From Escherichia coli (GTDB lineage Bacteria; Pseudomonadota; Gammaproteobacteria; Enterobacterales; Enterobacteriaceae): a DNA stretch of 64,000 bases. The notes under the pieces were generated by a model that saw only the letters and a program-made list of their open reading frames with translations, was not told the origin of the DNA and ran no database searches. Of this stretch, positions 15,235 to 62,192 are shown in pieces; within the stretch, counting starts at the first letter, position 1, and every line of letters begins with the position of its first letter. Both the position numbers and the translations under genes were made by a program. Location of the stretch: assembly GCF_001677475.2 (NCBI RefSeq), contig NZ_CP015229.1; one strand, written 5' to 3'.

Positions 15235-15269
15235 AAAAGCCCGGTATGCGTTTGCATCCGGGCTTTTTT
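15235..15269 (+). terminator. Rho-independent terminator after feoC
   Basis: AAAAGCCCGG ... CCGGGCTTTT inverted repeat followed by T-run. Confidence 0.7.
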
Positions 15270-15414
15270 GCGTGCAGATTTCCATAAAAATGCAACTCTT
15301 GCAGCACGGCGTAAGTTCCTCTGAAAGCGTCTCGCAGGGATGAAAACTGGCTAATGCACAGGTGTGGAGTGGCGCGTAGAGTCGCGGCATTCAAATAACA
15401 GGTGAAGGAACGCC

Positions 15415-16308: not shown

Positions 16309-16325
16309 CGTAAAGGATGGTTTTA

Positions 16326-16499: not shown

Positions 16500-16527
16500 A
16501 GTTCTGTCTCGCCATTTCAAAAGCTGT

Positions 16528-17316
<789 letters not shown>

Positions 17317-35918: not shown

Positions 35919-35925
35919 GGATGAT

Positions 35926-35948
35926 GCCCGGTTGAAGTGCAACCGGGC
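35926..35948 (+). terminator. Hairpin terminator after glpD (shared with convergent island operon)
   Basis: GCCCGGTTGaagtgCAACCGGGC followed by TATTTGG. Confidence 0.6.
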
Positions 35949-35969
35949 TATTTGGATTCCTTAGACTAT

Positions 35970-36575
35970 TTATTGTAAATAATTGAATAACGGCCCCTGA
36001 GCTAAAATCGCCAAACTTAAGCACGTTACCCACTCACCCCATTTCTGCCTCTGGCTTCTATTTTTGCTACACCAATGGCAATAATATCCCAATGCAAAAC
36101 CAACCTGTGCACTAATCGGGCCGACAAAATCAGTCCACGACTGCGGCCAAAAAGGGGAAAAATTCAGGGGAAGCCAGACAAACGTCAGAAAGAAATTTCG
36201 GATATTTTCCAGCAACGCTGATTTCTCTGGAGAAATATAAAGAATGAAATTCGAGAGAATTAACCAGAAATAGACCGGAGAAAAGACCAGCCAGCAATGC
36301 AGTCTGTTTTTTAATTCAGGAGGCGTTCTGCGGGAGAATTGCCAACCGATGCCCCACATTACACTGAAAAAAAATGCATATTCAACCATTAACTCAAGTT
36401 GTAATTCCTGAAGAGAAATACGCACAACCAGGAGCGGAAAGGAGAATGTTATTTCTGCCAGAAAAGTTAACGTGAATATAAGTACGGCTAAGACAATAAC
36501 CGTCGGCCATACCAATACTGGCACGATAACAAAACCGAGAATTACAGGGGGAATATAAAGCCGGAATTTAATCAT
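35970..36575 (-). CDS. Hypothetical small polytopic membrane protein (last gene of uncharacterised four-gene operon)
   Basis: 201-aa ORF with several hydrophobic helices; AGGAAA 7 nt upstream of ATG; 2-nt gap from the upstream gene's stop. Confidence 0.6.
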   Translation of the reverse strand: MIKFRLYIPPVILGFVIVPVLVWPTVIVLAVLIFTLTFLAEITFSFPLLVVRISLQELQLELMVEYAFFFSVMWGIGWQFSRRTPPELKNRLHCWLVFSPVYFWLILSNFILYISPEKSALLENIRNFFLTFVWLPLNFSPFWPQSWTDFVGPISAQVGFALGYYCHWCSKNRSQRQKWGEWVTCLSLAILAQGPLFNYLQ

Positions 36576-36577
36576 TT

Positions 36578-37345
36578 TTATTTTCCTGGTGATTCGGATG
36601 ATGCGTCATACATCGCGCATAAACACTCATCAATCATCCAGTCGTCTACCCAGACCTGATGCTGTGTACCCTGTTCTGGCTGCTTTGGTGGGTTCTCAAT
36701 CGCCTGCCGCGCGCGTTCTTTCAGGATGGATTGATTGTTGAAGGCCCAGGCATTGATTTGGGCGGTAATGGCATTATCGATATCGTCATGGTTATCTCTG
36801 ATATAACCTTCACGATACTGGTTCAATAAACAGGCAAGTGAAGCTGCCGACCAAAAGCCGGGAATTGAATTAACGGCATCAAGCAACGGCGCAATGGCGA
36901 TATCGGCACGGAAAAACATTTCCAGCATATACTGTAATTCGACAGCTTCATCGCCGGATACCCAATCAGCCATATACTGGCAGGCAAATCGCTGCAATAT
37001 TGCCCGTTCATCCGCACGCCAGTTTTCTTTGTTGGCAAGGTTGATACGGCGCAGAGAAAAAACTTCGTGAATATTGTCAAAATACCCCTGTGCAACAAAT
37101 TCCAGTAAACGCGGAAGAAAATAGCGGACCTCATCGCTATTTTGCGGATCGGGTCCTGGGCTACTATTCCAGGCATTGATTAAGGAATACGAGATCGCTC
37201 GTAACGATGTACTCCGTAATACCTTTTGTTCCTGCTGACTCAGGCAATATTCACAACAAACCACAAATTTCTGCGGCACCGGATAGCGACGAAAAATATG
37301 ATAAATCTGCTCAATTAATGCCTGCATGGCGGGGCTGGGTTGCAT
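36578..37345 (-). CDS. Hypothetical soluble protein (third gene of uncharacterised operon); start ambiguous
   Basis: Track ORF 36578..37372 (264 aa); preferred start is the ATG at 37343-37345 (MQPSPAMQALIEQ, 255 aa) preceded by GAGGGGG and 2 nt after the upstream stop. Confidence 0.55.
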   Translation of the reverse strand: MQPSPAMQALIEQIYHIFRRYPVPQKFVVCCEYCLSQQEQKVLRSTSLRAISYSLINAWNSSPGPDPQNSDEVRYFLPRLLEFVAQGYFDNIHEVFSLRRINLANKENWRADERAILQRFACQYMADWVSGDEAVELQYMLEMFFRADIAIAPLLDAVNSIPGFWSAASLACLLNQYREGYIRDNHDDIDNAITAQINAWAFNNQSILKERARQAIENPPKQPEQGTQHQVWVDDWMIDECLCAMYDASSESPGK

Positions 37346-37347
37346 AA

Positions 37348-38055
37348 TTACCCCCTCGCCCGCTGGTCGCATGTAAATGGTTGATAAACCAAACGAGCAT
37401 TCGCCGCATTCAGGCGAATAATGGCACTACGAGAGAGGGAAAAGCTGGGGCGAATGCAATAATTACAGTCCCGACAGCTATCCTCTGTGCAATTTTCCAC
37501 TGAGTAATGACGCGCGTAGAGTTTCAGTTCAGCCTGCTTATCGCGAAATCCGCGTAAACTGTTATCGCTATGAAATTTCCAGGCTTCTTTAAACACCTGA
37601 AAGATATAGACATCCTCAATCCAGGAGTCACATTTTTTAAGCGGGCGCTTTGCTATGATCACCCGCTCCGGGTTTAGCATCGCCGTAAAATGAACGGTGA
37701 AGTCATTTGTCGTATTCAGGTCACATTGAACATCTGGTACATCACTGATATAGGGGTCAAATCCAAAATCAGCACCACAGGCACAAAGACGACCGATCGT
37801 GGTGGTATCGAGGGAAAATCCCGGCCATACATTGCTGGACGTTAAGCCAATATTTAATGTGACATTATATCGAAGCAATCCCTCAAGACCGTCAGCACCG
37901 ACGAACTTTTCCCCTTCATCCAGGACCTGATTAATGAGTTGTTGAACAATACCTTCATCCCAGTATGCCGATTTGCAGTTGGCAATCGTAATATCCACGC
38001 CTGTGAAAGGATCAGTACCAGCGAGGCTTGCAAATAATGTATTAACTAATTCCAT
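37348..38055 (-). CDS. Hypothetical Cys-rich protein (second gene of uncharacterised operon)
   Basis: 235-aa ORF with 10 Cys including cluster C-x4-C-x2-C-x2-C (CTEDSCRDCNYC); 14 nt downstream of the first gene. Confidence 0.6.
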   Translation of the reverse strand: MELVNTLFASLAGTDPFTGVDITIANCKSAYWDEGIVQQLINQVLDEGEKFVGADGLEGLLRYNVTLNIGLTSSNVWPGFSLDTTTIGRLCACGADFGFDPYISDVPDVQCDLNTTNDFTVHFTAMLNPERVIIAKRPLKKCDSWIEDVYIFQVFKEAWKFHSDNSLRGFRDKQAELKLYARHYSVENCTEDSCRDCNYCIRPSFSLSRSAIIRLNAANARLVYQPFTCDQRARG

Positions 38056-38069
38056 TTTTATTACCCGCC

Positions 38070-39587
38070 TTAATGCAACGTTTTATACATCGGCACATAA
38101 CCCACGTCTTCTACCAAACTCTGCCCCTGCGGCGTTAAAAACCATTCAACCAGTTTTTGTGTTTCTGACGTCATATTTTCCCGCGTTACCATAAAGGCAT
38201 CGACGATATAGGGATATTTGCCATTGCGAATGTTTTCCGCAGTCGGTGCAATACCGTTAATCGCTAACAATTTGATATTCTTATCGGCATTCATTTGTGT
38301 TGCGTAATAGCGGAAGGTATAACCTATTGCGTTGTTTGTATTACGGTATTCGGCAACGACTTTAATCATTCCCTCCATCACACTTGCCACTTCGGTTTCC
38401 TGCGGCGAGATCATACGGACATTTTTCATGACCTGTAATTGCATCACCGTCTGACTGCCAGAGTCTTCCGGGCGTTGCCAGGTCTGGATCTCCTGATCGT
38501 TACCGCCAACAGTACGCCAGTTGGTAATTGCGCCACTAAAAATGTCTCGCACTTGTTGTTCAGTCAGGGAATTGACTGGATTATCAGCATTGACGATAAA
38601 AACAAATGCTTCACGGGCAAAGGGGGTGTACAGCAAAGTGACACCAGATTCCTTTGCACGTTTTTTCTGCCCACCGGAAGGTTGCGCCACGAAAATAATA
38701 TCAGCATCACCCTTAACGATTTTGTTATATGCTTCTGGCGTACGAGAGTTATCCAGATAATCCCAAACGTGAAAATCCTCTGGTATTATGCTTAACGCAT
38801 AAAAGGCAGAAGCATAAATTGGGTACGCCGCCGTGGCACCATCGATTCGCGGCCAGTTTTGCGTAAACTGAATTTGCGGTTTGCCACGCAGCGGCGTCAG
38901 TCGATTATTGAGTTTATCGGGTCGCCAGGCCCAGATATCAATATTTTCGCGTACACCAACACCAGGGTTTTGCTGCTTATATAAATGGGCCTGATACCCA
39001 GCGACAATACCAAGTAAGAGAAGTAGAAACAGGAGTAAGTTACGGCAACGTAGCCCGGACGTGCCGGTTAAAGGATGCCTTGTCGGCCAGCCGTATCCCA
39101 GCGAAAAACTGATATGCGTTCCAACGGGAATAATGACTATCCACCAGTACTCACCACCGACTAATGAGACTAACAAAACACCCAGCCAGGGAAGCATAAG
39201 ATCTGCCAACCAACCTGAAACCATCTGGCGAAATTGATAATCTGCCAGATGTAGCGTGATTATCCAGCCAACCAGGATTAATAAAGCAGGAACTAAAAAA
39301 AGACATTGTCGCCAGGCGGCTATTTCTCTGTTTTCTGGTGCGCTATCGCCCGCCCACACTCGCCCAGAGAAAAATAGCAGTAATGCGCCCAGCGTCAGCA
39401 TAAAGACGTTAAGTAGAAGATAAATTGTTGGCGTAAAGAGTAAATTGCAAAACTCAAGAATAGCGGCAAGCCCGGCCCCCAGCATGGCAATAACCGCCGC
39501 CAAAAACTGCGCCAGAATGGGGATGCCGAAAAAAGTCATTACCAGCGAGGTCAAAATCCATTTTCTGTTTTGCATTATTCTTTCCAT
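38070..39587 (-). CDS. Membrane-anchored PstS-like (PBP-like) substrate-binding-domain protein (first gene of uncharacterised operon); probably the intact form of K-12 pseudogene yzgL
   Basis: 505-aa ORF; N-terminal ~190 aa with multiple hydrophobic helices; C-terminal part with phosphate-binding-protein-like motifs (LTEQQVRDIFSGAITNWRTVGG); alternative start at Met5 (39575). Confidence 0.7.
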   Translation of the reverse strand: MERIMQNRKWILTSLVMTFFGIPILAQFLAAVIAMLGAGLAAILEFCNLLFTPTIYLLLNVFMLTLGALLLFFSGRVWAGDSAPENREIAAWRQCLFLVPALLILVGWIITLHLADYQFRQMVSGWLADLMLPWLGVLLVSLVGGEYWWIVIIPVGTHISFSLGYGWPTRHPLTGTSGLRCRNLLLFLLLLLGIVAGYQAHLYKQQNPGVGVRENIDIWAWRPDKLNNRLTPLRGKPQIQFTQNWPRIDGATAAYPIYASAFYALSIIPEDFHVWDYLDNSRTPEAYNKIVKGDADIIFVAQPSGGQKKRAKESGVTLLYTPFAREAFVFIVNADNPVNSLTEQQVRDIFSGAITNWRTVGGNDQEIQTWQRPEDSGSQTVMQLQVMKNVRMISPQETEVASVMEGMIKVVAEYRNTNNAIGYTFRYYATQMNADKNIKLLAINGIAPTAENIRNGKYPYIVDAFMVTRENMTSETQKLVEWFLTPQGQSLVEDVGYVPMYKTLH

Positions 39588-46888: not shown

Positions 46889-49071
46889 TCTGCCTCCCGA
46901 ACCAGCCAGATAGTGGCCAGCGGTGGTAGCGTCAGGCTTAGTGAATGCTGACGACCGTGGCTGGCAATCTCATCGCTGTGTACCGTGCCGCCATTGCCTG
47001 CATTACTGCCGTGATAGTGCATGGAATCGGTATTGAGGATCTCACGCCATTTGCCCGGCTGATTGATGCCGAAGCGATAATCATGACGCGGCACCGGCGT
47101 AAAGTTACTGGCAACGATGATTTCGTTACCCTCTTTATCGCGACGCACAAAGATCAGCACCGAGCGTTCTTTGTCATCCACCACCAGCCATTCAAAGCCG
47201 TACGGGTCAAAATCCAGTTCATGCATTGCTTTATGGTGGCGGTAGGTGAGGTTCAGATCGCGCACCAGACGCTGGACACCGTGGTGCCAGTTATCGCCGC
47301 CTTCCAACAGATGCCAGTCGAGGCTGGCGTCATGGTTCCACTCGCGGCCCTGGGCAAATTCGTTCCCCATGAACAGCAGTTTCTTGCCCGGGAATGCCCA
47401 CATCCAGCCGTAGTAGGCGCGCAGGTTAGCGAATTTCTGCCATGCGTCGCCCGGCATCCGGTCGAGAATCGATTTTTTACCGTGGACCACTTCATCATGC
47501 GACAACGGCAGGACGAAGTTTTCAGTGTAGTTGTAGAGCATCCCGAAGGTCAGTTTATCGTGATGATACTGACGATAAACCGGGTCGAGCTTCATGTAGT
47601 CCAGGGTGTCATGCATCCAGCCTAGGTTCCACTTGTACCAGAAGCCCAGACCGCCCATATCCTGCGGACGAGAAACGCCTGGGAAATCGGTAGACTCCTC
47701 AGCCATTGTCACCGCACCGGAAACCTGCTCACCAAGAATACGGTTGGTATTACGCAAGAATTCAATCGCTTCAAGATTCTCGCGCCCGCCAAATTCGTTC
47801 GGGATCCACTCCCCCTCTTTACGGCTGTAGTCGCGATAAATCATTGACGCCACCGCATCGACGCGCAGCGCATCAATACCAAAACGTTCAATCCAGTAAA
47901 GCGCGTTACCGACAAGGAAGTTACTGACTTCACGGCGACCATAGTTGTAGATCAGCGTGTTCCAGTCCTGATGATAGCCTTCGCGCGGATCGCTGTGTTC
48001 ATACAAGTTCGTGCCATCAAATTCGGCAAGCGCAAAGTCATCGGTCGGGAAGTGGCCTGGCACCCAGTCGAGAATCACGTTCAGACCAGCTGCGTGTGCA
48101 GCATCAATGAAATAACGGAAGTCGTCGCGAGTACCAAAACGGCGGGTCGGTGCATACAGGCCGGTTGGCTGATAACCCCAACTGCCATCGAAGGGATGCT
48201 CGTTAATGGGCAGTAGCTCGAGATGGGTAAAGCCCATCCATTTAGCATAAGGCACCAGTTGATCGGCCAGCTCGCGGTAGCTCAACCAGAAATTGTTGTC
48301 GGTGTGACGACGCCAGGAGCCCAGGTGAACTTCATAAATAGAGATTGGCGCATCAAACTGATTCGCTTTTTTGCGCTCTTCAGTCTGTACAACCTTTTCC
48401 GGCAGCCCACAAATAAGAGACGCGGTTTCCGGGCGCATTTGCGCTTCGAAGGCATAAGGGTCGGACTTCAGACGCAAGTTGCCATTGGCATCAATCATCT
48501 CGTATTTATAGAGCTGACCGTTATGCGCCCCAGGGATAAACAGTTCCCAGATGCCGCTCTCTTTACGCAGACGCATCGGGTGACGGCGACCGTCCCAGTA
48601 GTTGAATTGCCCAACCACCGAGACCCGACGGGCGTTTGGAGCCCAGACAGAGAAACGCGTACCTGTGACGCCATCCATAGTATCTGCATGCGCGCCTAAG
48701 GTTTCATACGGGCGCAGGTGAGTACCTTCAGATAATAGCCAGGCATCCATTTCCTGGATTAGCGGACCAAAACGGTAAGGATCATCAATCAGGTTTTGCT
48801 GACCATGCCAGACAACAGCCAACTGATAGCGGAAAAAATTCTTACGTCGCGGAATGACACCGCTAAAGAATCCCCGTGAGTCGAGACACTCCAGTTTTGC
48901 GAGTTTGCGCCCGGTTTTCGGTTCAATCACCCACACATCGGTAGCGTCGGGTAAAAGGGCACGGACTTCCAGTCCCGCGGTGGTTTTATGCATCCCCAGT
49001 ACGGAAAAAGGATCCGCAAAATGGCCTGCAATTAGCGCGTTAATCACGTCTCTATCGATACGATCGGACAT
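46885..49071 (-). CDS. glgB: 1,4-alpha-glucan branching enzyme
   Basis: 728-aa ORF; GH13 family. Confidence 0.96.
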
Positions 49072-49343
49072 GCTTGTCTTCCTGTTTTATTGTGTCACCC
49101 CATCCAACTGGATTTTTGACTTCTGGTTGTGACATTTTTTTGACCTGAACGGCGCAGCACTCTGTGCATCCTCTCTGCGTCGTCCTCACTTCAGGTAAGG
49201 CTGTGAATACTCATGTATTCAGCCACCCTTAAAGAATAGCCAATGCTCTATTTAACTCCCGGTAAATCATGAAACATCTGCGCTTACTCCTGTATTACGC
49301 ACTAACAGGGGCGGCATCGCGCCCCAGATTTAATGAATAAAGA

Positions 49344-50447
49344 TTACGCCAGTTGACGAAGCATCCGACGCAGCGGCTCCGCGGCCCCCCACAGCAGCTG
49401 GTCGCCCACGGTAAAGGCTGACAGGAACTCTGGTCCCATATTCAGCTTACGCAGGCGGCCTACCGGCGTGGTCAGCGTGCCGGTAACGGCAGCTGGGGTT
49501 AGCTCACGCATAGTGATTTCCCGATCGTTCGGAACGACTTTCGCCCACGGATTGTGCGCAGCCAGCAGTTCTTCCACGGTCGGAATAGACACATCTTTTT
49601 TCAATTTAATAGTGAATGCCTGGCTGTGGCAGCGCAATGCCCCGACACGCACACATAAACCATCTACCGGAATTACGGAAGATGTGTTGAGGATCTTGTT
49701 GGTTTCCGCCTGCCCTTTCCACTCTTCGCGGCTCTGACCGTTATCAAGCTGTTTGTCGATCCACGGAATCAGGCTACCCGCCAGCGGCACGCCAAAGTTA
49801 TCCACCGGCAGCTCACCGCTACGGGTTAAGGTTGTGACTTTGCGTTCGATATCGAGAATAGCAGAGGACGGGGTCGCGAGTTCATCTGCCACATGGCTAT
49901 ACAGATGGCCCATCTGGGTTAATAACTCACGCATATGTCGCGCACCACCGCCGGAAGCGGCCTGGTAGGTTGCAACGGACACCCAATCAACAAGATCATT
50001 GGCGAATAAACCACCCAACGACATCAACATCAGGCTTACGGTACAGTTACCGCCAACAAAAGTCCTGATGCCATTATTTAATCCGTCGGTAATGACGTCC
50101 TGATTGACGGGGTCAAGAATGATGATGGCGTCATCTTTCATGCGCAGAGATGATGCTGCGTCAATCCAGTAACCTTGCCATCCGCTTTCACGAAGCTTTG
50201 GATAGATTTCGTTGGTATAATCGCCGCCCTGACAGGTCACAATGATATCGAGGGCCTTTAGCGCCTCCAGATCAAAGGCATCCTGAAGTGTGCCAGTGGT
50301 TCCGCCAAAAGACGGCGCAGCCTGACCAAGCTGAGAAGTAGAAAAGAAGACAGGGCGAATGGCGTCGAAGTCGCGCTCTTCAACCATGCGTTGCATGAGA
50401 ACGGAGCCGACCATACCGCGCCAGCCGATAAAACCAACATTTTTCAT
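49344..50447 (-). CDS. asd: Aspartate-semialdehyde dehydrogenase
   Basis: Track ORF 49344..50507; start at [14 protein letters not shown] (NAD-binding fold); 367 aa. Confidence 0.96.
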
Positions 50448-50638
50448 AAGCGTTTTTTCCTGCAAAGATGTGTGCTGTATAAATGTGCCGGTCTCCTCTT
50501 GGCACATCTTTCACCATACAAAAAGCAGCCAAAGTCGCAAGTGAAATTAATCAATGATAGCGAAGCCATCAGTAATGCGACTTATCCTGCTTTGTTAGCA
50601 CGCAGAAAGTCCGCGGCAATTATCAGGGAATTTGAGTT

Positions 50639-51232
50639 ATGAATGAAATCATTTCTGCAGCAGTTTTATTGATCCTGATTATGGATCCGCTCGGAAACCT
50701 ACCTATTTTCATGTCCGTACTGAAACATACTGAACCGAAAAGACGGCGGGCAATCATGGTGCGAGAGTTGCTTATTGCTCTCCTGGTGATGCTGGTGTTC
50801 CTGTTTGCGGGTGAGAAAATTCTGGCATTTCTCAGCCTGCGAGCAGAAACCGTTTCCATTTCTGGCGGCATCATTCTGTTTCTGATCGCCATTAAGATGA
50901 TTTTCCCCAGCGCTTCAGGAAATAGCAGCGGGCTTCCGGCAGGTGAAGAGCCGTTTATCGTGCCGTTGGCAATTCCGTTAGTCGCCGGGCCGACTATTCT
51001 CGCCACGCTGATGTTGTTGTCTCATCAGTACCCGAATCAGATGGGACATCTGGTGATTGCTCTGCTGCTGGCCTGGGGCGGCACCTTTGTTATCCTTCTA
51101 CAGTCTTCGCTATTTTTACGTCTGCTGGGCGAGAAAGGGGTGAATGCACTTGAACGCCTGATGGGATTGATTCTGGTGATGATGGCAACCCAGATGTTCC
51201 TCGACGGCATTCGAATGTGGATGAAGGGGTAA
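50639..51232 (+). CDS. yhgN: YhgN, MarC-family (UPF0056) inner-membrane protein
   Basis: 197-aa polytopic ORF between asd and gntU. Confidence 0.9.
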   Translation: MNEIISAAVLLILIMDPLGNLPIFMSVLKHTEPKRRRAIMVRELLIALLVMLVFLFAGEKILAFLSLRAETVSISGGIILFLIAIKMIFPSASGNSSGLPAGEEPFIVPLAIPLVAGPTILATLMLLSHQYPNQMGHLVIALLLAWGGTFVILLQSSLFLRLLGEKGVNALERLMGLILVMMATQMFLDGIRMWMKG

Positions 51233-51254
51233 CGAGGAGCGTTTTTCGAAAAGA

Positions 51255-51280
51255 GCCCGGTAGCGTCACAACTACCGGGC
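51255..51280. terminator. Hairpin between convergent yhgN and gntU
   Basis: GCCCGGTAGcgtcacaaCTACCGGGC inverted repeat. Confidence 0.6.
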
Positions 51281-51288
51281 GAACAAAC

Positions 51289-52629
51289 TTAACTCAACAG
51301 CTGGAAAGCAATCATCCCAACGATGGCACCGACAGTGCCGAGGATGGTTTCCATCATGGTCCAGGTTTTCAGTGTTTCGGCTTCAGTCGCGCCGGTAAAT
51401 TTACCGAACAACCAGAAACCGGCGTCGTTAACGTGGCTGACAACAATCGAACCACCGGCGATACAAATCGACAGCGCCGCCATTTGCGCACCGGAGTAGT
51501 TCAGTTGTTCAATAACCGGCATCACCAGTCCCACCGCCGTTAAACAGGCAACGGTGGCAGAACCCTGAATGATGCGCACTGCAGCTGCCAGCACGAAGCA
51601 GGTGATGGCAATCGGCAGGCCCATGCCGGTTAACGCTTCGCCCAGTGCCGGACCTACGCCAGAGTCAACCAGCACCTGTTTGAACACGCCGCCTGCACCA
51701 ATCACCAGCAGAATGATCCCCGCCGGTTGCAGCGCGTGACCACAAATTTCCATCACTTTGTCTTTTGGCATGCCCTGACGCATTGCCAGGCCATAAATTG
51801 CTACCAGACAAGCAACCAGAATCGCAGTAAACGGATGACCGATAAACTCAAACCATTCGTAAGCAGTTGATCCTTCTGGTACAAAACGCGCGGCAATGGT
51901 TTTAAGCCCTACCAGTACCAGCGGCAGCAGGATCAGCGACAGGCTAAATCCGAAAGATGGCATTTTGCCTTCACCGAGATGCGGTTCGCTGATGTCGTCA
52001 GGAATATGCAGCTCAACGTAACGGCTGATGAAGTTACCCCACAGCGGCCCGGCAATAATCATTCCCGGAATTGCCGCACACAGGCCAATCAGGATCATCC
52101 AGCCAAAATCGGCGTTCATCTGCGATGCCAGCAGCATTGGCGCAGGTCCAGGCACCAGGAATGCCGCCGCTGCCGCCACGCCTGCGAATAATGGGATTAC
52201 AAGCTTCACCAGGTTCGTACCGGTGTGGCGCGCCATTGAGAAAGCAACGCTAATCAGCAGAACAATCGCCACTTCAAAGAACAGCGGTAGTGCACAGACC
52301 AGCCCCGCAAGGCCGATGGCATAATGCGCGCGGCTGTGACCGAAGGATTTGAGCATTTTGACGGCAATCTGATCGACTGCGCCGGTTTCATGTAAGATCT
52401 TGCCAAACATAGCTCCCAGGGCGACAACCACCGCCAGGAAGCCGAGGGTGCCTCCCATCCCTTTTTCCATCGTCGCTGCGATTTTATCGAGCGGCATACC
52501 GGAAAAAAGGCCAGCCCCCATGGACACCACCATTAAAGCCAGGAAAGCGTGCATACGCGCCTTCATGACTAAAAACAGCAGCAGTAAAACAGACCCTACT
52601 GCTGTTAAAACAAGCGTTAATGTAGTCAC
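51289..52629 (-). CDS. gntU: Low-affinity gluconate transporter GntU (GntP family)
   Basis: 446-aa ORF, paralogous to gntT in this window, downstream of gntK. Confidence 0.93.
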   Translation of the reverse strand: MTTLTLVLTAVGSVLLLLFLVMKARMHAFLALMVVSMGAGLFSGMPLDKIAATMEKGMGGTLGFLAVVVALGAMFGKILHETGAVDQIAVKMLKSFGHSRAHYAIGLAGLVCALPLFFEVAIVLLISVAFSMARHTGTNLVKLVIPLFAGVAAAAAFLVPGPAPMLLASQMNADFGWMILIGLCAAIPGMIIAGPLWGNFISRYVELHIPDDISEPHLGEGKMPSFGFSLSLILLPLVLVGLKTIAARFVPEGSTAYEWFEFIGHPFTAILVACLVAIYGLAMRQGMPKDKVMEICGHALQPAGIILLVIGAGGVFKQVLVDSGVGPALGEALTGMGLPIAITCFVLAAAVRIIQGSATVACLTAVGLVMPVIEQLNYSGAQMAALSICIAGGSIVVSHVNDAGFWLFGKFTGATEAETLKTWTMMETILGTVGAIVGMIAFQLLS

Positions 52630-52632
52630 TAC

Positions 52633-53160
52633 TTATTTGCCTTTTTTAATAACCTCGATGGTGCTTGCCACAACACCTTCCAGCGGTTGATCGATATCCA
52701 CCACCAGTACATCGGTTTCGTCCGCACCCGGCTCCTGCAGCGTTTCAAACTGCGTCACCAACATTTGGGTTTTAAAGAAATGGCCTTTGCGCGCTTTCAG
52801 GCGGCTTTCAATCACATCAAAATCGCCTTTCAGGTAGATGAACGAGAGATTCGGATTACCTTCACGCAGCAAGTCGCGATAGTGTTTTTTCAGTGCAGAA
52901 CAGACGATCAGCGACACTTTATTGGTGCGCTGCATAGCAAACGCGGCGTCGTTCAGCGCCTGCAACCACGGTTTGCGATCGTCGTCATTCAGCGGTTCAC
53001 CAGACGCCATTTTTTCGATATTGCGCCGTGGATGGAGGAAATCGCCATCAAGAAACGCGGCATGAAGTTGATGCGCCACTTCACTGGCGACCGCAGATTT
53101 GCCGCTGCCCGATACGCCCATCAGAACGTAAATGTGGTGATCATGGTTAGTCGTGCTCAA
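52633..53160 (-). CDS. gntK: Gluconokinase GntK
   Basis: Track ORF 52633..53181; start is a TTG at 53158-53160 giving 175 aa (xSTTNHDHHIYVLMGVSGSGKS, P-loop). Confidence 0.92.
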   Translation of the reverse strand: MSTTNHDHHIYVLMGVSGSGKSAVASEVAHQLHAAFLDGDFLHPRRNIEKMASGEPLNDDDRKPWLQALNDAAFAMQRTNKVSLIVCSALKKHYRDLLREGNPNLSFIYLKGDFDVIESRLKARKGHFFKTQMLVTQFETLQEPGADETDVLVVDIDQPLEGVVASTIEVIKKGK

Positions 53161-53190
53161 AGTGGTGCCCCCACAATACAAGAATTAAAA

Positions 53191-53220
53191 ATGTTACGGG
53201 TAACTGTTATCGGTAACATT
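53191..53220. promoter_or_regulatory. Tandem GntR operator-like sites in the gntKU promoter
   Basis: ATGTTACGGGTAACTGTTATCGGTAACAT, two overlapping ATGTTA-N4-TAACAT-type sites 30-60 bp upstream of the gntK TTG start. Confidence 0.6.
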
Positions 53221-53298
53221 GTCCAGCCGGACAATATCAGAAGCAATATCCATCCGTGCCTTAAGTGTATAAGTGTGAGCTACTTCAAATTTGTAGGC

Positions 53299-54294
53299 TT
53301 AAATAGATCCGCCCGGTGACAAGGTGAAACCTAAATCTAACATTTTCGGTGTCACAGATTCGCCACGAATACGCGCCAGCAGGCGTTCAGCGCCAATACT
53401 GCCCATCCGCTCACGCGGCGTCAGTACGCTCGCCAACCGTGGTTCCATCACCTGACCAATGTCATGACCATGGAAACCGGCAATCGCCATATCGTCAGGA
53501 ACTTTCAACCCCAGACGCTGGCATTCAAACGCCGCGCCGACTGCCAGGTCATCATTAGTACAGAACACGCCATCCAGCTGCGGATATTCCCGCCTCGCCT
53601 GGCGAATCAGTTCAATACCGGAAGAGTAAGAAGAAGATTGCTCAACCATCACGCTATATGGCACCAGGCCTGCATCCAGCATCGCCTGTTCGTATCCCTT
53701 CTGTTTGATGATAGTACGTTCGTCGAGACGTGCGCCGAGATAGGCAATGTGGCGATGCCCGCGAGCAATAATGGCGGTGGTCATCTGCCGTGCCGCTTCA
53801 AAGTTATCAAAACCGACGGCGATATCGAGGCACGGCGACTGGCTGTCCATCAACTCCACCACCGGGATCCCCGCCACTTCAATCATCTTTAAGGTGCGCG
53901 GCGTGTGGGTACGTTCGGTGAGGATCAGTCCGTCGATATTCCATGAGAGCATTGATTCGAGGCGTTCTTGCTCCATTTCCGGTTTATAACCGTAGTGGGC
54001 CAGCATGGTCTGATAACCGTGCGCGTCGGTGACGCTTTCGATTCCGCGTAATACTTCCGCGAAAACCTGGTTGGTGAGAGAAGGTAACAGGACGCCAATC
54101 GCCCGGCTGGTGGCGTTAGAGAGGATATCGGGCGCACGATTGGGAATATAGCCCAGTTCATCAAGAGCGGCGGCAATCTTGCCGCGTAGAGCGACGGAAA
54201 CCTGCTCCGGGTTGCGTAAAAAACGGCTGACCGTCATTTTGGTCACGCCTACACGGTCAGCCACATCCTGAAGTACGGGTCTTTTCTTTTTCAT
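53299..54294 (-). CDS. gntR: GntR, LacI-family gluconate repressor
   Basis: 331-aa ORF; N-terminal LacI-type HTH (VLQDVADRVGVTKMTVSR). Confidence 0.95.
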   Translation of the reverse strand: MKKKRPVLQDVADRVGVTKMTVSRFLRNPEQVSVALRGKIAAALDELGYIPNRAPDILSNATSRAIGVLLPSLTNQVFAEVLRGIESVTDAHGYQTMLAHYGYKPEMEQERLESMLSWNIDGLILTERTHTPRTLKMIEVAGIPVVELMDSQSPCLDIAVGFDNFEAARQMTTAIIARGHRHIAYLGARLDERTIIKQKGYEQAMLDAGLVPYSVMVEQSSSYSSGIELIRQARREYPQLDGVFCTNDDLAVGAAFECQRLGLKVPDDMAIAGFHGHDIGQVMEPRLASVLTPRERMGSIGAERLLARIRGESVTPKMLDLGFTLSPGGSI

Positions 54295-54517
54295 CGTCCT
54301 GAAGGTACAAAAGAGATAGATTCTCTTAGTTTAACACGGACGCCTCAGAACCTTCCCGGGGAAAACAGTGCTTGTTTACAATTATTAGATATACACTAAA
54401 TCAATTGCATCGCATTGTGCTAACGACGCGGCAAAACCCCGGAAGCGTACATCAGCACGCGACCGGAGCGAGCGAGGAAGCCTGCAAAAAGGCAGGCTTC
54501 AAAGATGCCGTTGAGTT

Positions 54518-55213
54518 TTAAACCGGCGGCAGATCGAACAGTAACACTTCGCTGTCGCTATCCGCATGGATGGAGATTGCCTGCTCATCCCAGATTGCCA
54601 GACCATCGCTGGTCGAGGCTTTCACGCCGTTAATGGTGACATTGCCTTTCACCACCTGGATCCAGACGCGGCGTTCAGCGGCAATCTGATGCACCGACTG
54701 CTCATCTTTCAGCAATGCCCAACGATACAGTTCCATATCCTGATGCACTTTCAGCGAACCATCTCGCGCATCCGGCGAGAGCACCAGCTGTTTGCCCTGT
54801 ACGGCATCGAAGCGACGCTGTTCATAACGCGGCGTAATGCCGTTTTCTTCAGGCATGATCCAGATCTGATACAGATGCAGACGCTCGGTGCTGCTTGGGT
54901 TGTACTCAGAGTGACGGATACCCGTACCCGCACTCATAATCTGGAACTCACCCGCCGGAACCTGCTCTTTATTGCCCATGCTGTCCTGATGTTCAACAGT
55001 ACCTTCCAGCACGTAGGTCAAAATTTCCATATCTTTATGCGGGTGAGTGCCGAAGCCCTGCCCTGCTTCAATCACGTCGTCATTAATCACGCGCAGCGCG
55101 GAGAAACCCATAAAGTTCGGATCGTAATAGTTGGCAAAAGAGAAAGTATGCCAGGAGTCCAGCCAGCCATGATTTGCATGACCACGTTCATTTGCTTTGC
55201 GTAAGTAGATCAT
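54518..55213 (-). CDS. yhhW: YhhW, pirin-like cupin (quercetin 2,3-dioxygenase)
   Basis: 231-aa ORF with pirin metal-binding His residues (HPHKDMEILTYVLEG). Confidence 0.92.
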   Translation of the reverse strand: MIYLRKANERGHANHGWLDSWHTFSFANYYDPNFMGFSALRVINDDVIEAGQGFGTHPHKDMEILTYVLEGTVEHQDSMGNKEQVPAGEFQIMSAGTGIRHSEYNPSSTERLHLYQIWIMPEENGITPRYEQRRFDAVQGKQLVLSPDARDGSLKVHQDMELYRWALLKDEQSVHQIAAERRVWIQVVKGNVTINGVKASTSDGLAIWDEQAISIHADSDSEVLLFDLPPV

Positions 55214-55335
55214 TTGTATTCGCCCCCTGAATGTTTTCGATGGGCTTAGTGTGGACCCGATCTGCCTGGGATGATAGAGGGTGAAAATTGACCCCTCTGT
55301 TCAAAAAAATTGAACTATTCGAGGGGCCATCAAAC

Positions 55336-56373
55336 TTACTTCGCGAGAGTCACTGTGGAGGGAGAAGCTTGCTCAAAACCGCGTTCAAGGATTTCCAGAT
55401 TGGTAAGAACTTCAGATTCCTTGACGTAATTTGGCGCACCGTTGGTGATGGTTTGGTACAACGCATCATAAACGCGCCCATAATCGCCCATTTCTGGCTT
55501 CATCTCTTCTCTGACCGTCACGCCCTCTTCATTGACATACTCCAGCACACCGACCGAATCATCCGCCGCGAATCCCGGTTCGCCCGGCATAATATTAGCC
55601 TTCAGGCTGGTTTCCTGCTGGTCGATACCGTATTTAATAAACGAACCTTTCTTACCGTGAACGATAAATTTCGGATAATCGATTTTCACCAGATGGCTGG
55701 TTTTGACGATGGCTTTCAGGTCGCCATAAAACAGCTGCGCTTCAAAGGTGTCGTCAGGATTGGCTTTATTACGCAGGCTGCGGATGTCATAAGCGACGTG
55801 ATCCGGGCGACCGAACAGAGAAATAATCTGGTCCATCGTATGCACACCAAGGCCATAGAACGCGCCATCCTGCGGCAACCCAGGTTTGGTTTCTGCCACC
55901 GGGCGGTAATAGTCAAAATGGCTTTCCACTTCGACAATCTCTCCCAGCTTGCCGCTTTCAATCGCTTTTTTCGCTGTCAGGAAGCAGGAATCAAAACGAC
56001 GATTCTGATACGGCGTGACGGTCAACCCTTTGCTTTTCGCCAGTGCAAAAAGCTCTTTCGCCTGCGCAAGCGTCGGGGTGAACGGTTTTTCGACCAGCAC
56101 ATTTTTCCCGGCTTCCAGCGCGCGTTTCGCGTACTCGAAGTGGCTGTCCGCGTGGGTGCAGACAACAACCAGCTTAACATCGGGATCGTTTAGCACTTCG
56201 TCGAGATCGCTGGTGAAATGGATATGGGAATAAATGGGAGCCTGTTCTTCCGGCTTCGCATGGCGACGAAAAATATGCGCGACATGCCAGCTATCCTTGC
56301 GGTTAAGTACATACGGCAGATGGTAACGGGTGGTGCTTTTGCCGAAGCCAATAAAGGCGCAGTTGATGACCAT
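55336..56373 (-). CDS. yhhX: YhhX, Gfo/Idh/MocA-family NAD(P)-dependent oxidoreductase
   Basis: 345-aa ORF; N-terminal Rossmann motif. Confidence 0.92.
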   Translation of the reverse strand: MVINCAFIGFGKSTTRYHLPYVLNRKDSWHVAHIFRRHAKPEEQAPIYSHIHFTSDLDEVLNDPDVKLVVVCTHADSHFEYAKRALEAGKNVLVEKPFTPTLAQAKELFALAKSKGLTVTPYQNRRFDSCFLTAKKAIESGKLGEIVEVESHFDYYRPVAETKPGLPQDGAFYGLGVHTMDQIISLFGRPDHVAYDIRSLRNKANPDDTFEAQLFYGDLKAIVKTSHLVKIDYPKFIVHGKKGSFIKYGIDQQETSLKANIMPGEPGFAADDSVGVLEYVNEEGVTVREEMKPEMGDYGRVYDALYQTITNGAPNYVKESEVLTNLEILERGFEQASPSTVTLAK

Positions 56374-56494
56374 GATTTCGTCCTTTTTAAGGTGATTATT
56401 TACACCTTAGCGCAAAGCGGACGTGGTTCCTACTGGAGTGCGCATAACGAACACAAGCACTTCCCGTGGATAAATTGAAAACGAAAGATCAAAA

Positions 56495-56584
56495 AAAAGC
56501 CAGCACCCGGCTGGCTAAGTAATACTGGAAGCAATGTGAGCAATGTCGTGCTTTCAGGTTCTCCGCGAGGGTCTTCCTGATCGC
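56495..56584 (-). ncRNA. ryhB: RyhB small RNA (Fur-repressed iron-sparing sRNA)
   Basis: Minus-strand sequence reads GCGATCAGGAAGACCCTCGCGGAGAACCTGAAAGCACGACATTGCTCACATTGCTTCCAGTATTACTTAGCCAGCCGGGTGCTGGCTTTT, matching RyhB as I recall it, ending in a GC-rich hairpin plus U-tract. Confidence 0.9.
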
Positions 56585-56586
56585 GA

Positions 56587-56607
56587 GACAATAATAATCA
56601 TTCTCAT
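56587..56607 (-). promoter_or_regulatory. Fur box overlapping the ryhB promoter
   Basis: Minus strand AATGAGAATGATTATTATTGTC immediately upstream of the RyhB 5' end. Confidence 0.6.
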
Positions 56608-56705
56608 TCGCACTTGTCCAACACTTTTTGCAAAAAAATGCATTTGACTCGCATTTGAAAGTCAATGATGTTGAAAGGGACATTTACCCCAAAGAGGACA
56701 AAGGA

Positions 56706-57194
56706 ATGAGTGAGATAGTGATACGCCACGCAGAAACACGGGATTACGAGGCCATCAGGCAGATTCACGCCCAGCCGGAGGTGTATTGCAACACACTACA
56801 ACTACCTCATCCTTCGGAAGGCTGGTGGCCAGAAAGATTGAAAGATCGCCAGGGGTTTAAACAACTGGTTGCCAGCATTGATGGCATCGTGGTGGGTCAT
56901 CTTTTCATTGAGGCTTATCAAGGCCCACGCCGTAGTCATGTTGCAACTTTTGGTATCTGTGTTGACTCCCGCTGGCACAACCGCGGCGTCGCCAGCGCCC
57001 TGATCCGCGAATTGATTGAAATGTGCGACAACTGGTTACGGATAGATCGTATTGAGTTGACGGTGTTTGCGGATAACGCCCCGGCAATCGCCGTCTATAA
57101 AAAATTCGGCTTTCACATAGAAGGCACCGGCAAAAATTACGCTTTTCGTAATGGTGAATATGTCGATGCATATTATATGGCGCGGGTGAAATAA
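56706..57194 (+). CDS. yhhY: YhhY, GNAT-family N-acetyltransferase
   Basis: Track ORF 56628..57194; start at ATG 56706 (MSEIVIRHAETRDY); 162 aa; the N-terminal extension in the track overlaps the ryhB promoter. Confidence 0.9.
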   Translation: MSEIVIRHAETRDYEAIRQIHAQPEVYCNTLQLPHPSEGWWPERLKDRQGFKQLVASIDGIVVGHLFIEAYQGPRRSHVATFGICVDSRWHNRGVASALIRELIEMCDNWLRIDRIELTVFADNAPAIAVYKKFGFHIEGTGKNYAFRNGEYVDAYYMARVK

Positions 57195-57220
57195 AGAATT
57201 TGCAATATAAGTTTGTCATT

Positions 57221-57247
57221 TAAGCCCTCACCTACCGGGAGAGGGCT
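57221..57247. terminator. Hairpin between convergent yhhY and ggt
   Basis: AAGCCCTC acctaccggga GAGGGCTT inverted repeat in a 60-bp intergenic region. Confidence 0.6.
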
Positions 57248-57254
57248 TAAGATA

Positions 57255-58988
57255 TTAATAACCCGCCGTTAAATCATCCACCGAGCGCGGGTCAGATGCG
57301 CCGTACAACTCGCCGTCCGGCCCAACCATAATGCTTTGTGTGCTGCCCATCGCCTCTTTCAGCGCTACTTTCTGACCTTTTGCTTCCAGCAGCTTGAGCG
57401 TATCCGGGCTAAATCCTTTCTCGACACGCAGCTCGTCCGGCAACCACTGATGGTGGAAACGCGGTGCATTGGTCGCTTCGGCGACATTCATACCATAATC
57501 GATGCTATTCACCACCATTTGCAGCACGGTAGTGATGATCCGGCTACCGCCAGGGCTACCGGTGACCAGCCAGGTTTTACCGTCTTTCACCACAATGGTT
57601 GGTGACATCGACGACAGCGGACGTTTATTCGGCCCGACGGCGTTGGCATCACCGCCCACCAGCCCGTAAACGTTCGGTACGCCAGGTTTGGCGGAGAAAT
57701 CATCCATTTGGTTATTAAGCAGAATACCGCTATCACCCGCGACAATGCCCGTACCGAAGGTGGTGTTCAGCGTATAGGTCACCGCTACCGCGTTGCCGTC
57801 TTTATCCACCACTGAGTAATGGGTAGTTTGATTACTCTCATAAGGCGCAAGCTTGCCGGGGCGAATTTCGCTGGATGGCTTCGCTTTATTGATATCGATT
57901 TGATCGGCAATGGATTTGGCATAGGCTTTATTGGTCAGCGCCTGCCACGGCACTTTGACAAAATCCGGGTCGCCAAGATATTCCGAGCGGTCGGCGTAGG
58001 CGTATTTCTCAGCTTCAGCCATGATTTGCATCGCGTCGGCACTGCCAAAGCCGTATTTCTTCATATCGAAGTTTTCCAGAATATTGAGGATTTGTACGAT
58101 ATGGATCCCGCCGGAGGATGGCGGTGGCATGGAGTAAACCTGATACCCGCGATAATCGCCGCTTATTGGTGTGCGTTCGACCGCTTTATACGCCGCTAAA
58201 TCTTCTTTGGTGATCAAGCCACCGTTTTTCTGCATCTCCTGGGCAATCTGTTCCGCTATCGTGCCTTTGTAGAATTCGTCCGGGCCGTTTTCGGCAATCA
58301 TCTCCAGGCTCTTTGCCAGGTTCGCCTGCACCAGCTTGTCGCCCTTTTTCAGCGGCTCGCCCTCTTTCCAGAAGATAGCCTTGCTGTTTTCGTGGTTCGG
58401 CAGCACTTCACTGCCGTAGGTTTTGAGATCGTCTGCCAAAGCATCGTTAACGATAAAACCATCGCGTGCCAGTTTAAACGCCGGCTGCACGACTTTATTC
58501 AGCGGCATAGTGCCGTACTTATCCAACGCCAGCGAGAAACCTGCGACCGTACCGGGCGTGCCGGAAGCCAGATGCGAAGTGAGTGATTTTTTGCTGTCCG
58601 GGTTGCCCTGGTCATCAAGGAACATATCGCGGGTCGCTTTGGCGGGTGCCATTTCGCGGAAATCAATCGCCGTGGTGTTGCCATCTTTAGTGCGGATCAG
58701 CATAAAACCACCGCCGCCCAGATTCCCCGCCTGCGGATGCGTTACCGCCAGCGCATACCCCACCGCCACGGCGGCATCAACGGCATTACCACCTTCTTTA
58801 AGGATATTCACCCCCACCTGAGTGGCAGTAGCATCCACAGACGCCACCATCCCCTGTTTCGCGCGTACCGGATGAAAGACATCTTCCTCCACGCCATAAG
58901 AAACAGGAGGCGCGGCGGCGGCGCTAAAACAACTTCCTGAGAGCAGAGCAGCAATGGCCACCCGGCGTAAAAACGTCGGTTTTATCAT
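57255..58988 (-). CDS. ggt: Gamma-glutamyltranspeptidase
   Basis: Track ORF 57255..59015; start at MIKPTFLRRVA (signal peptide); catalytic Thr in QTTHYSVVD; 580 aa. Confidence 0.96.
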   Translation of the reverse strand: MIKPTFLRRVAIAALLSGSCFSAAAAPPVSYGVEEDVFHPVRAKQGMVASVDATATQVGVNILKEGGNAVDAAVAVGYALAVTHPQAGNLGGGGFMLIRTKDGNTTAIDFREMAPAKATRDMFLDDQGNPDSKKSLTSHLASGTPGTVAGFSLALDKYGTMPLNKVVQPAFKLARDGFIVNDALADDLKTYGSEVLPNHENSKAIFWKEGEPLKKGDKLVQANLAKSLEMIAENGPDEFYKGTIAEQIAQEMQKNGGLITKEDLAAYKAVERTPISGDYRGYQVYSMPPPSSGGIHIVQILNILENFDMKKYGFGSADAMQIMAEAEKYAYADRSEYLGDPDFVKVPWQALTNKAYAKSIADQIDINKAKPSSEIRPGKLAPYESNQTTHYSVVDKDGNAVAVTYTLNTTFGTGIVAGDSGILLNNQMDDFSAKPGVPNVYGLVGGDANAVGPNKRPLSSMSPTIVVKDGKTWLVTGSPGGSRIITTVLQMVVNSIDYGMNVAEATNAPRFHHQWLPDELRVEKGFSPDTLKLLEAKGQKVALKEAMGSTQSIMVGPDGELYGASDPRSVDDLTAGY

Positions 58989-59107
58989 CGTTATTCTCCA
59001 GAGATTAAGGGGCAACCCCAGCTAAGCCTGGTATATAACTCTGAATTAATCCTGATGATTGCAGGAAAGGAGTAAACTTAAAGAATATCTTCAGAGGAGG
59101 ATACGCG

Positions 59108-59500
59108 ATGAAACGACTTCTGATTCTTACGGCACTCCTGCCGTTTGTCGGCTTTGCACAGCCCATTAATACTCTGAACAACCCTAACCAGCCGGGGTAT
59201 CAGATCCCCAGTCAGCAGCGGATGCAAACCCAAATGCAAACGCAGCAAATCCAGCAAAAAGGGATGCTGAATCAGCAACTGAAAACGCAAACTCAGTTGC
59301 AACAACAGCATTTAGAAAACCAGATAAACAATAATTCTCAGCGGGTGTTGCAGTCACAGCCGGGGGAGCGAAATCCCGCCCGGCAGCAAATGCTGCCCAA
59401 CACCAACGGCGGGATGTTAAACAGCAACCGTAATCCGGATAGTTCGTTGAATCAGCAGCATATGCTGCCGGAGAGGAGAAACGGCGACATGCTGAATTAG
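59108..59500 (+). CDS. yhhA: YhhA, secreted Gln/Asn-rich protein of unknown function
   Basis: 130-aa ORF with signal peptide ([17 protein letters not shown]) and Q/N-rich low-complexity sequence. Confidence 0.85.
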
Positions 59501-59534
59501 CCCAGCACGCCGCAGCCTGATATTCCGTTGAAAA

Positions 59535-60278
59535 CTATTGGGCCGTAAAGTTCGGACCAATCACGTCAATCGCATCGGTACAGATGCAATCCACGCCCCA
59601 GCGCAGCAACTCTGTCGCGCGCTGGGGTTTATTGACGGTATAAACCAGAATCCGTAATCCGGCGTCTTTCAACTGCATCACTCGCGCTTTATCGAGTAAC
59701 TTATGATTGAGATGAATAGAGACGCAGCCCAGCCGCGCGGTCAGTTCTCGCCAGTCGTCGCGCCACTCATCAAGCAATAAACCGCGCGGCAGTTCTGGTA
59801 CTGCTTGTTGCGCGGCTTCTAAAGCATCAATCTCAAACGATGACAGCAGCGGCGGCGTCATATCGGCCCACAGTTCGCGTGCCGCCAGCGCCACCATTTT
59901 GCCCGTTAATGGTCCAGTGCCAGTGGTGGGTTTGATTTCGATATTCGCCATCATCCCGTGTTCACGACAGCGTTCCGCCACCTGCGAAAGCAACGGTAGC
60001 GGCTCACCTTTAAACATTTTGCTGTACCAACTGCCCGCATCCACGCGCAGTAAATCCTGCCAGTTCAGTTCACCCGCGACGCCCCAGCCGTTGCTGGTAC
60101 GTTCGAGATTGTCGTCATGAAGCAGGAAGATCTCGCCATCTTTCGATAACTTCGCGTCAAATTCGATCATCTTATGACCGTATTTTGCCCCGACGTCGAT
60201 TGCCGCCAGGGTGTTTTCGGGGGCCAGCTTACCGCCGCCACGATGAGCGACGATGCGGGGATAAGGCCAGTTACTCAT
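59535..60278 (-). CDS. ugpQ: Cytoplasmic glycerophosphodiester phosphodiesterase
   Basis: 247-aa ORF; GDPD-family motifs (VAHRGG); last gene of ugp operon. Confidence 0.95.
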
Positions 60279-61345
60279 ACTCGTTGTCCTGTTTCACCAT
60301 CAAAAAGATGCAGCTGATTTTCCGCCAAATGCAGCCACAGCGTGCTGCCTGCCGTCGGGCGCTCCTGATGCGCCAGTCGCACCACCAGCTTCTGCTCGCC
60401 CCAGCGTCCGTGCGCCAGGTTATCTGCGCCGAGGATCTCCAGCGTATCCATCACCAGCGGTACGCCACCTTCTGCTTGCGAGCTTAGCGCAATATGTTCC
60501 GGGCGAATGCCGAGGGTCATTTTACGCCCGGCATACTGACGGTAGCCACCGTTTAGCGGCAGCTCAATACCGCCGTCCAGTTCGAAATGCGTGCCTTCGT
60601 TATTCACGCGGCCTGTCAGCAGGTTCATCGCCGGGCTGCCGATAAAACTCGCCACAAACAGGCTGGCGGGCTTTTCATACACTTCAACCGGAGTGCCAAT
60701 CTGTTCGGCAACGCCGCCGTTCATCACCATCACCCGCTGAGCGAGCGTCATCGCCTCAACCTGATCGTGAGTAACGTAGAGTGAAGTCGTTTTCAGGCGA
60801 CGGTGCAATTGCTGCAACTCAAGGCGCATCTGCACGCGCAGCTTGGCATCAAGGTTCGAGAGCGGCTCATCAAACAAAAATACCGCCGGATCGCGCACAA
60901 TCGCGCGCCCCATTGCCACGCGCTGGCGCTGCCCGCCGGAAAGCTCACGCGGGCGACGTTTGAGCAGACCGTCCAGCTCCAGAATGCGCGCCGCTTCTTT
61001 AACGCGCTCGGCTATTTGCTGCTTGCCCATGCCGCGAATTTTCAGCCCCCACGCCATGTTTTCTTCGACGCTCATATGCGGATAAAGCGCGTAGTTCTGG
61101 AACACCATCGCAATCCCGCGATCTTTCGGCTCCATTTCGGTCACACGCTCATTGTTGATCCAGATATCGCCTTCCGTTACCCGCTCCAGCCCGGCAACCA
61201 TGCGCAGCAGCGTGGATTTCCCGCAGCCAGACGGCCCGACCATCACGATAAATTCGCCATCCGCCACATCAAGGGTCAGCGGTTTAATCACCTGGGTTTT
61301 GCCATCCCAGCTTTTGGTTACTGCCTGTAATTTCAGTCCTGCCAT
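60275..61345 (-). CDS. ugpC: sn-glycerol-3-phosphate ABC transporter ATPase
   Basis: Track ORF 60275..61384; start at MAGLKLQAV; Walker [10 protein letters not shown] and ABC signature LSGGQRQR; 356 aa. Confidence 0.95.
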
Positions 61346-61346
61346 C

Positions 61347-62192
61347 TTATTTCTCACTATCGACCAGGCCGCGCACGAAGGCACGCTGCATCACTAAAAC
61401 AATCACTACTGGTGGGATCAGGGTTAACAACATCGCCGCCATCACCGAGTTCCATTCCGTGGTGCCTTCGCCAGTGGCGATCATCCCTTTAATCCCTGCC
61501 ACGGTGGTGCCGAGATCAACGTCGGTAATAATCAACAACGGCCACAAATACTGGTTCCAGCCGTAAATAAAGGTGATCACAAACAGCGCCGCCAGATTAG
61601 TTTTGGAGAGCGGAAAAACGATGTCGCAAAAGAAGCGCATTGGTGACGCACCGTCGATCCGCGCCGCTTCCACCAGCTCATCCGGCAGCGTCATAAAGAA
61701 CTGGCGGAAAAGAAACGTGGCGGTCGCCGAGGCCATCAGCGGCAGCGTTAAACCGGCGTAGCTGTCGAGCATCTTCAGATTGGCGATGACTTCCACCGTC
61801 GGGAAAATACGCACTTCAACCGGCAGCATCAGGGTGATAAAAATCATCCAGAAGAATAGGTTACGTAGCGGAAAACGAAACCAGACAATGGCAAATGCCG
61901 AGAGCATCGAGACGGTAATTTTGCCGAGCGTAATGCTGAACGCCATCACAAAGCTGTTAAGCAACATCCGCCAGAACGGCGCGCTATTCGTGCCTACCCC
62001 GTTCACCCAGATGTTGTGGATGTTTTCCAGCAGATGCGTGCCGGGGATGAGCGTCATCGGCGCGGCGTAGACGGCCTGTTTATCCAGCGTCGCCGCGACA
62101 AACGCCACGTACAGCGGGAAGAGGATCACCGCGATCCCGAGGATCAGCATGGTATGGCTGAATATCGTCAGCCACGGACGGTTCTCAATCAT
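61347..62192 (-). CDS. ugpE: sn-glycerol-3-phosphate ABC transporter permease
   Basis: 281-aa polytopic ORF between ugpA and ugpC. Confidence 0.95.

Follow-up and report, generated by a model that had tools for sequence, protein, structure and literature searches.

An Escherichia coli yhhY–ggt junction without the yhhZ–yrhA–IS1–yrhB segment of K-12, probably an ancestral empty site

Fusions of Hcp with an HNH domain (Hcp-ET1) are T6SS-delivered DNases that kill neighbouring bacteria, and the T6SS is absent in K-12 (PMC6730261). The YhhZ protein has been described as an 'evolved Hcp' with a 'degenerate HNH' toxin domain (PMC2907695), and it has been placed in group 32 of the His-Me finger proteins as a polymorphic-toxin effector (PMC5714182). 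The yrhA gene of K-12 is interrupted by IS1E (PMC12428005). The K-12-like occupants of the interval between yhhY and ggt resemble the published Hcp-ET modules (PMC6730261, PMC2907695) in having an Hcp N-terminus, a putative HNH-type C-terminus, and small putative immunity genes downstream, the likeness of YhhZ to Hcp-ET1 being one of domain layout. The K-12 module differs from these modules in being an orphan and in being disrupted by IS1. The E. coli DNA analysed here, a stretch of 64 kb referred to as the window, has no such module at all. The features of the locus in the window are as follows.

56706–57194, plus strand: yhhY, an intact open reading frame of 162 codons (ATG at 56706, TAA at 57192–57194) encoding a GNAT N-acetyltransferase; left flank
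56801–57146, plus strand: mosaic patch in yhhY, 346 bp, differing by about 24% from every other Escherichia allele
57195–57254, no strand: unoccupied spacer, exactly 60 bp between the convergent yhhY and ggt stops, where the cassettes of other strains sit
57220–57250, no strand: conserved stem-loop, 25 nt from the yhhY stop and 4 nt from the ggt stop
57255–58988, minus strand: ggt, gamma-glutamyltransferase of 577 aa, its stop codon read as TTA on the plus strand at 57255–57257; right flank

The sequence and the open reading frame listing bear out the description in an earlier note on this DNA, namely that yhhY and ggt are adjacent and convergent with a 60-bp spacer containing one hairpin. YhhY matches Pfam Acetyltransf_1 at 6e-17 and the NCBIfam equivalog NF007527 with 320 bits (cut-off 236) over residues 1–162 of 162, despite 26 amino-acid differences from the K-12 protein. 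Ggt is 98.5% identical to that of K-12 at the amino-acid level, with one APP unit fewer near its N-terminus. The start of ggt was taken as the conserved ATG at 58988 (MIKPTFLRR...), although the open reading frame in the list runs on to a TTG at 59015. The gap between yhhX and yhhY contains the small RNA RyhB in its expected place (56491–56555, minus strand; Rfam RF00057, 83 bits, full length).

The same genes stand in the same orientation on both sides of the site in K-12 MG1655 (gntR-yhhW-yhhX-ryhB-yhhY ... ggt-yhhA-ugpQ), with 95–97.5% identity to the window. The two sequences differ in that the window lacks a segment of 3,454 bp, has another hairpin allele, and has a diverged patch in yhhY. 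In the BLAST alignment of the two loci, positions 1–8795 of the K-12 locus match 48401–57194 of the window and positions 12250–16795 match 57255–61791. Homology thus ends at 57194 and restarts at 57255, precisely at the two stop codons. In K-12, the interval of 3,454 bp from yhhY to ggt is filled by yhhZ/tssD, yrhA::IS1, yrhD, and yrhB. The earlier note placed yhhZ, an IS1-interrupted yrhA, and yrhB in this interval; all three were found there, together with yrhD, and the alignment confirmed that yhhY and ggt are not adjacent in K-12 and that the segment is absent from the window. When the whole 64-kb window was searched by tblastn with YhhZ, YrhA, YrhD, YrhB, and a DUF4225 protein encoded at this site in other strains, nothing was returned below E = 0.29, and IS1 was not found across the window by blastn.

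The segment that the window lacks is AT-rich, with 34% GC without IS1 and 38% with it, compared with 50–55% in the flanks. The N-terminus of K-12 YhhZ matches Pfam T6SS_HCP at 1.6e-11 and TIGR03344 with 118 bits (cut-off 58.9), and its C-terminus matches Pfam HNH with 17.4 bits, below the threshold of 21.4. The yrhA gene overlaps the stop codon of yhhZ and encodes a member of the YrhA/YPO0640 family, and YrhB matches Pfam Imm35 at 4e-23. Judging from these domains, the K-12 segment may be regarded as an orphan Hcp-HNH effector islet with putative immunity genes, where both the immunity function and the activity of the effector are predictions. In two other strains, WEM25 and ST12468, independent IS1 insertions split tssD/yhhZ, and the pieces are annotated as TssD and HNH endonuclease.

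We surveyed the site in 5,426 complete E. coli genomes. A junction-spanning query of 211 bp was fully covered in about 975 of them (18%), which were counted as empty, and a second query gave 974. The yhhZ gene is borne by 3,806 genomes (70%), and 343 (6%), belonging to the O157:H7 group, carry a cassette with a DUF4225 gene. The two flanks lay together at one position in 1,242 genomes; taking away the 975 empty sites gives an estimate of about 270 genomes (5%) for the class with yrhB only, in agreement with the 276 genomes bearing the yhhY allele of that class. Together, these four classes add up to about 5,390 genomes out of 5,426. The states of the site and their representatives are listed below.

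Empty: VE-T9, ECONIH1, strain 104, LHM10-1, EC958, 042
tssD-yrhA-yrhD-yrhB island with IS1 in yrhA: K-12
tssD-yrhA-hypothetical-yrhB without IS1, collinear with K-12 except for IS1: ETEC4067
yrhB only: MS10495, APEC O78, SCEC020026
Unrelated 1.86-kb cassette with a DUF4225 gene: O157:H7/O55:H7 group

The interval between yhhY and ggt is a strain-variable chromosomal islet site with at least five occupancy states. The conserved flanks, yhhX-yhhY on one side and ggt-yhhA-ugpQ on the other, have the same order and orientation in every locus examined, and the inserts have an atypical composition of 32–38% GC against 50–55% in the flanks. No integrase is annotated at the occupied loci examined, and no direct repeats were found at the ends of the K-12 island, where the repeats are limited to the inverted repeats of IS1 and its target duplication in yrhA. 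Presence/absence polymorphism at this locus is ordinary and of an already known kind of variable site. The counts also bear on a trivial explanation, that an island was lost from the window through collapse or omission in the assembly. IS1-containing regions are sometimes misassembled, but nothing specific points to such an error here; the identical junction is shared by about 975 independent complete genomes as well as by other Escherichia species, and the spacer is a clean ortholog without truncated genes. We regard the chance of an artefact as negligible.

The spacer contains a GC-rich stem-loop with the sequence TTAAGCCCTC-A-CCT-ACC-GGG-A-GAGGGCTTAA, in which TTAAGCCCTC and GAGGGCTTAA form a perfect stem of 10 bp that is extended by three inner pairs. 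Its predicted folding energy is –20.7 kcal/mol (z = –2.7), and 4 of 200 shuffled sequences were equally stable. The stem-loop is retained across Escherichia, and 4 of the 12 predicted pairs keep pairing despite changes on both sides. With bidirectional intrinsic terminators it shares a GC-rich stem-loop between convergent stops and conservation with covariation throughout the genus. It differs from them in having no U-tract beside the stem on either strand, the tails being AAGATATTAAT on the plus strand and AAATGACAAAC on the minus strand, and in being missed by a consensus scan: a terminator scan of 56300–57600 did not list it. Because the U-tract is missing, a canonical intrinsic terminator is unsupported. 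We also rejected a REP or other repeat, the element being present as a single copy in the window even when three mismatches were allowed. The Rfam search gave no match in the spacer, and the sole genuine match nearby is RyhB upstream. The hairpin is probably an element shared by the two convergent transcripts, at which their 3' ends are formed or protected.

The polarity of the difference between the window and K-12 could be read from related species. One genome per GTDB species was scanned with the YhhY protein, and yhhX, yhhY, and ggt were located in each of the resulting 41 loci. With few exceptions, yhhY and ggt converge directly and are separated by about 35–120 bp; the exceptional loci, which include those of Franconibacter and Leclercia, have a larger gap. 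The adjacency was found in each of the five non-coli representatives of Escherichia (E. albertii, E. whittamii, E1V33, E69, and SCPM-O-B-8794), among which E69 is counted even though it is labelled 'E. coli', and also in about 30 other Enterobacteriaceae such as Citrobacter, Enterobacter, Klebsiella, Lelliottia, and Pluralibacter. The empty-site E. coli strains VE-T9, LHM10-1, ECONIH1, EC958, and 042, as well as E. albertii and E. whittamii, share with the window the same convergence, spacer, and hairpin. The window spacer is identical at 57 of 60 positions to that of E69, at 54 of 60 to that of E1V33, and at 52 of 63 to that of E. albertii, and within E. coli at 58 of 60 to those of both VE-T9 and ECONIH1. 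The empty-site E. coli strains differ from the window in minor base changes, and most of them, for example ECONIH1, have the standard yhhY instead of the patch of the window. About 30 bp of the spacer gave way to the K-12-type island, and the window retains those bases. On these sequence comparisons, the window very probably has the ancestral, never-occupied form of the yhhY–ggt junction, and the K-12 arrangement would be the derived one. Our observations comprise the absence of the segment from the window, the polarity given by the outgroups, the composition and domains of the inserts, and the population frequencies.

Alternatively, the lineage of the window might once have possessed the yhhZ–yrhA–yrhB island and lost it by precise deletion. 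Such a history could be imagined because 70% of the complete E. coli genomes have yhhZ and because reduced forms of the island exist in the yrhB-only class, and we consider it very unlikely for the window. The roughly 30 bp replaced by the island are still present in the window and match the other Escherichia sequences at 57/60 and 54/60 positions, and a deletion, which cannot restore replaced bases, therefore fails to account for the window. No remnant of the island was found in the window either, and none of the 60 bp of the spacer derive from it. The hairpin alleles tell a similar story with one complication. A single ggt-proximal hairpin allele (GGCCCTCTTCCCACGAAGAGGGCC) is common to all occupied states, and the window has a different allele, which is of the outgroup type. 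Strain 104 carries the hairpin allele otherwise seen only at occupied sites inside an otherwise ancestral empty spacer, a configuration that would fit loss of an island in that strain. Because the occupied-type hairpin occurs at this empty site, the two hairpins can be understood as alleles of one element, with the cargo lying on its yhhY side. Some empty sites, such as that of strain 104, could be secondary losses or recombinants; for the window itself, the ancestral empty site is the reading that we retain.

The window belongs to E. coli, with 97.3–98.9% identity to K-12 compared with 92–94% to other Escherichia species. The nearest of the 5,426 complete E. coli genomes reach at best about 97.3% identity over 14 kb around the site and 97.8–97.9% over 24 kb elsewhere. 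The best matches over these stretches include PCN033 and ST70, which we take to be phylogroup-D-type strains. Judged by these identities, the lineage of the window is poorly covered among finished E. coli genomes. Since the window appears to represent a deep-branching lineage, an empty ancestral site in it would be no surprise.

The yhhY gene itself departs from the ordinary pattern. There are 84 differences between the yhhY sequences of the window and K-12, and 82 of the 84 fall inside 56801–57146, leaving the first 95 bp and the last 48 bp of the gene as ordinary E. coli sequence. The identity of the patch to any other Escherichia allele, that of E. albertii included, is only about 76%, and to those of other genera about 71%, compared with 88–96% identity of the other Escherichia alleles among themselves. 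The dS of the patch against all Escherichia alleles is about 1.0, compared with 0.34 between K-12 and E. albertii, and its dN/dS is 0.15; this combination indicates deep divergence under purifying selection instead of decay. Copies at least 95% identical to the patch occur in about 160 of the 5,426 complete E. coli genomes (3%). The patch is found beside empty sites (VE-T9, LHM10-1, and strain 104) as well as beside an occupied one (ETEC4067), its linkage to the empty site being known from only five sampled loci.

A donor of the patch was sought at two scales. The GTDB species representatives gave nothing above 84% amino-acid identity, and among 5.8 billion proteins only E. coli clusters, 96–98% identical, exceeded 85%. 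Between these clusters and the standard allele (83–85%), there were only two truncated proteins from short contigs (P0003 and P0058). Salmonella, Citrobacter, and Enterobacter were rejected as donors, being further off than the standard E. coli allele, and the search of 5.8 billion proteins excluded a paralogue as the donor in a gene conversion. One Logan contig (SRR1710770, positions 1–2076; L052), which is E. coli-like in its background and itself about 95% identical to the window, carries a version of the patch that is 95% identical and has an empty yhhY–ggt site with a shortened spacer. In this contig, one difference in the length of an A-run truncates the called YhhY protein, which may be an assembly error. 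The internal diversity of the patch across carriers is about 5%, and the 95%-identical version in L052 suggests that the patch allele class is old. Tentatively, and with considerable doubt, the window-type yhhY might represent an ancient GNAT allele class, which balancing selection has maintained in E. coli sensu lato or which entered long ago by introgression from a sister lineage not yet sampled.

The patch brings in a further explanation of the empty site, in which homologous recombination brought in the empty allele together with part of yhhY from a different Escherichia lineage. The foreign-looking patch of 346 bp ends 48 bp before the yhhY stop, so recombination has acted here, and its occurrence with empty and occupied sites alike indicates that flank and cargo recombine freely. 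Moreover, the 14 kb around the site are only 96–97% identical to every complete genome. The whole window, however, is similarly distant from all 5,426 genomes, so the local divergence is not specific to the site, and the closest relatives elsewhere in the window include the strains ST70 and AST20, carriers of the window-type yhhY, which is consistent with vertical descent. We consider such a replacement improbable and continue to favour an ancestral site that was never occupied in this lineage.

The most plausible course of events would start from an ancestral arrangement in which yhhY and ggt were convergent with a short spacer, whose hairpin probably formed or protected both 3' ends. In the ancestry of K-12 and most strains of the phylogroup A/B1 type, a foreign, AT-rich cassette would have entered just on the yhhY side of the hairpin and replaced about 30 bp of the spacer, and IS1 would have landed later in yrhA of K-12. 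Other lineages have the DUF4225 cassette (O157:H7/O55:H7) or the yrhB end of the island alone. Because neither an integrase nor flanking repeats were found, we infer the insertion route indirectly: it might have been illegitimate insertion, probably followed by homologous recombination through the flanks.

For the strain itself, the finding matters little, placing it among the approximately 18% of E. coli that keep the cargo-free ancestral yhhY–ggt junction. The strain would lack both the Hcp-HNH toxin YhhZ and the immunity-type genes for YrhA and YrhB, and it is predicted to be sensitive to kin delivering the YhhZ effector. The site could be used as a small lineage marker, with the empty, yhhZ-island, yrhB-only, and DUF4225 states as its alleles, and might serve as a natural neutral integration locus. 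The sole lead of wider interest is the diverged yhhY allele beside a hotspot of toxin/immunity cassettes.

The surrounding DNA contains other variable sites. As the earlier note had stated, the window has two strain-variable sites that differ from K-12 in opposite directions: the insert at yhhY–ggt is in K-12, and extra DNA between glpD and glgP is in the window. The latter occupies 35919–39352, compared with about 265 bp (a yzgL remnant) in K-12. It consists of a run of minus-strand open reading frames, of which three (201, 264, and 235 aa) are without a Pfam match and one of 505 aa has a PBP_like_2 periplasmic-binding domain. At a third variable site, between yhgN and gntU (about 51.0–51.3 kb of the window), many strains have an insert of about 3.4 kb with genes for a DprA-like protein and a RecQ-family helicase. 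Its carriers include O157 28RC1 (positions 424–3750 of its locus), VE-T9, and LHM10-1, among others, and the insert is absent in both the window and K-12.

On the other side of the junction, the N-terminal length of Ggt was found to depend on the strain, owing to a short Ala-Pro repeat after the signal-peptide region (58890–58988 of the window, minus strand). The repeat reads AAAAPPVSYG in the window, where Ggt has 577 aa; K-12 Ggt (580 aa) has AAAAPPAPPVSYG, and that of ECONIH1 (581 aa) has AAPPAPSPVSYG. A piece of ggt also occurs outside the chromosome: the 184-kb E. coli plasmid NZ_AP022088.1 contains, at 4189–4365, a 178-bp piece that matches the 3' end of ggt at 90% and is annotated as 'hypothetical protein'.
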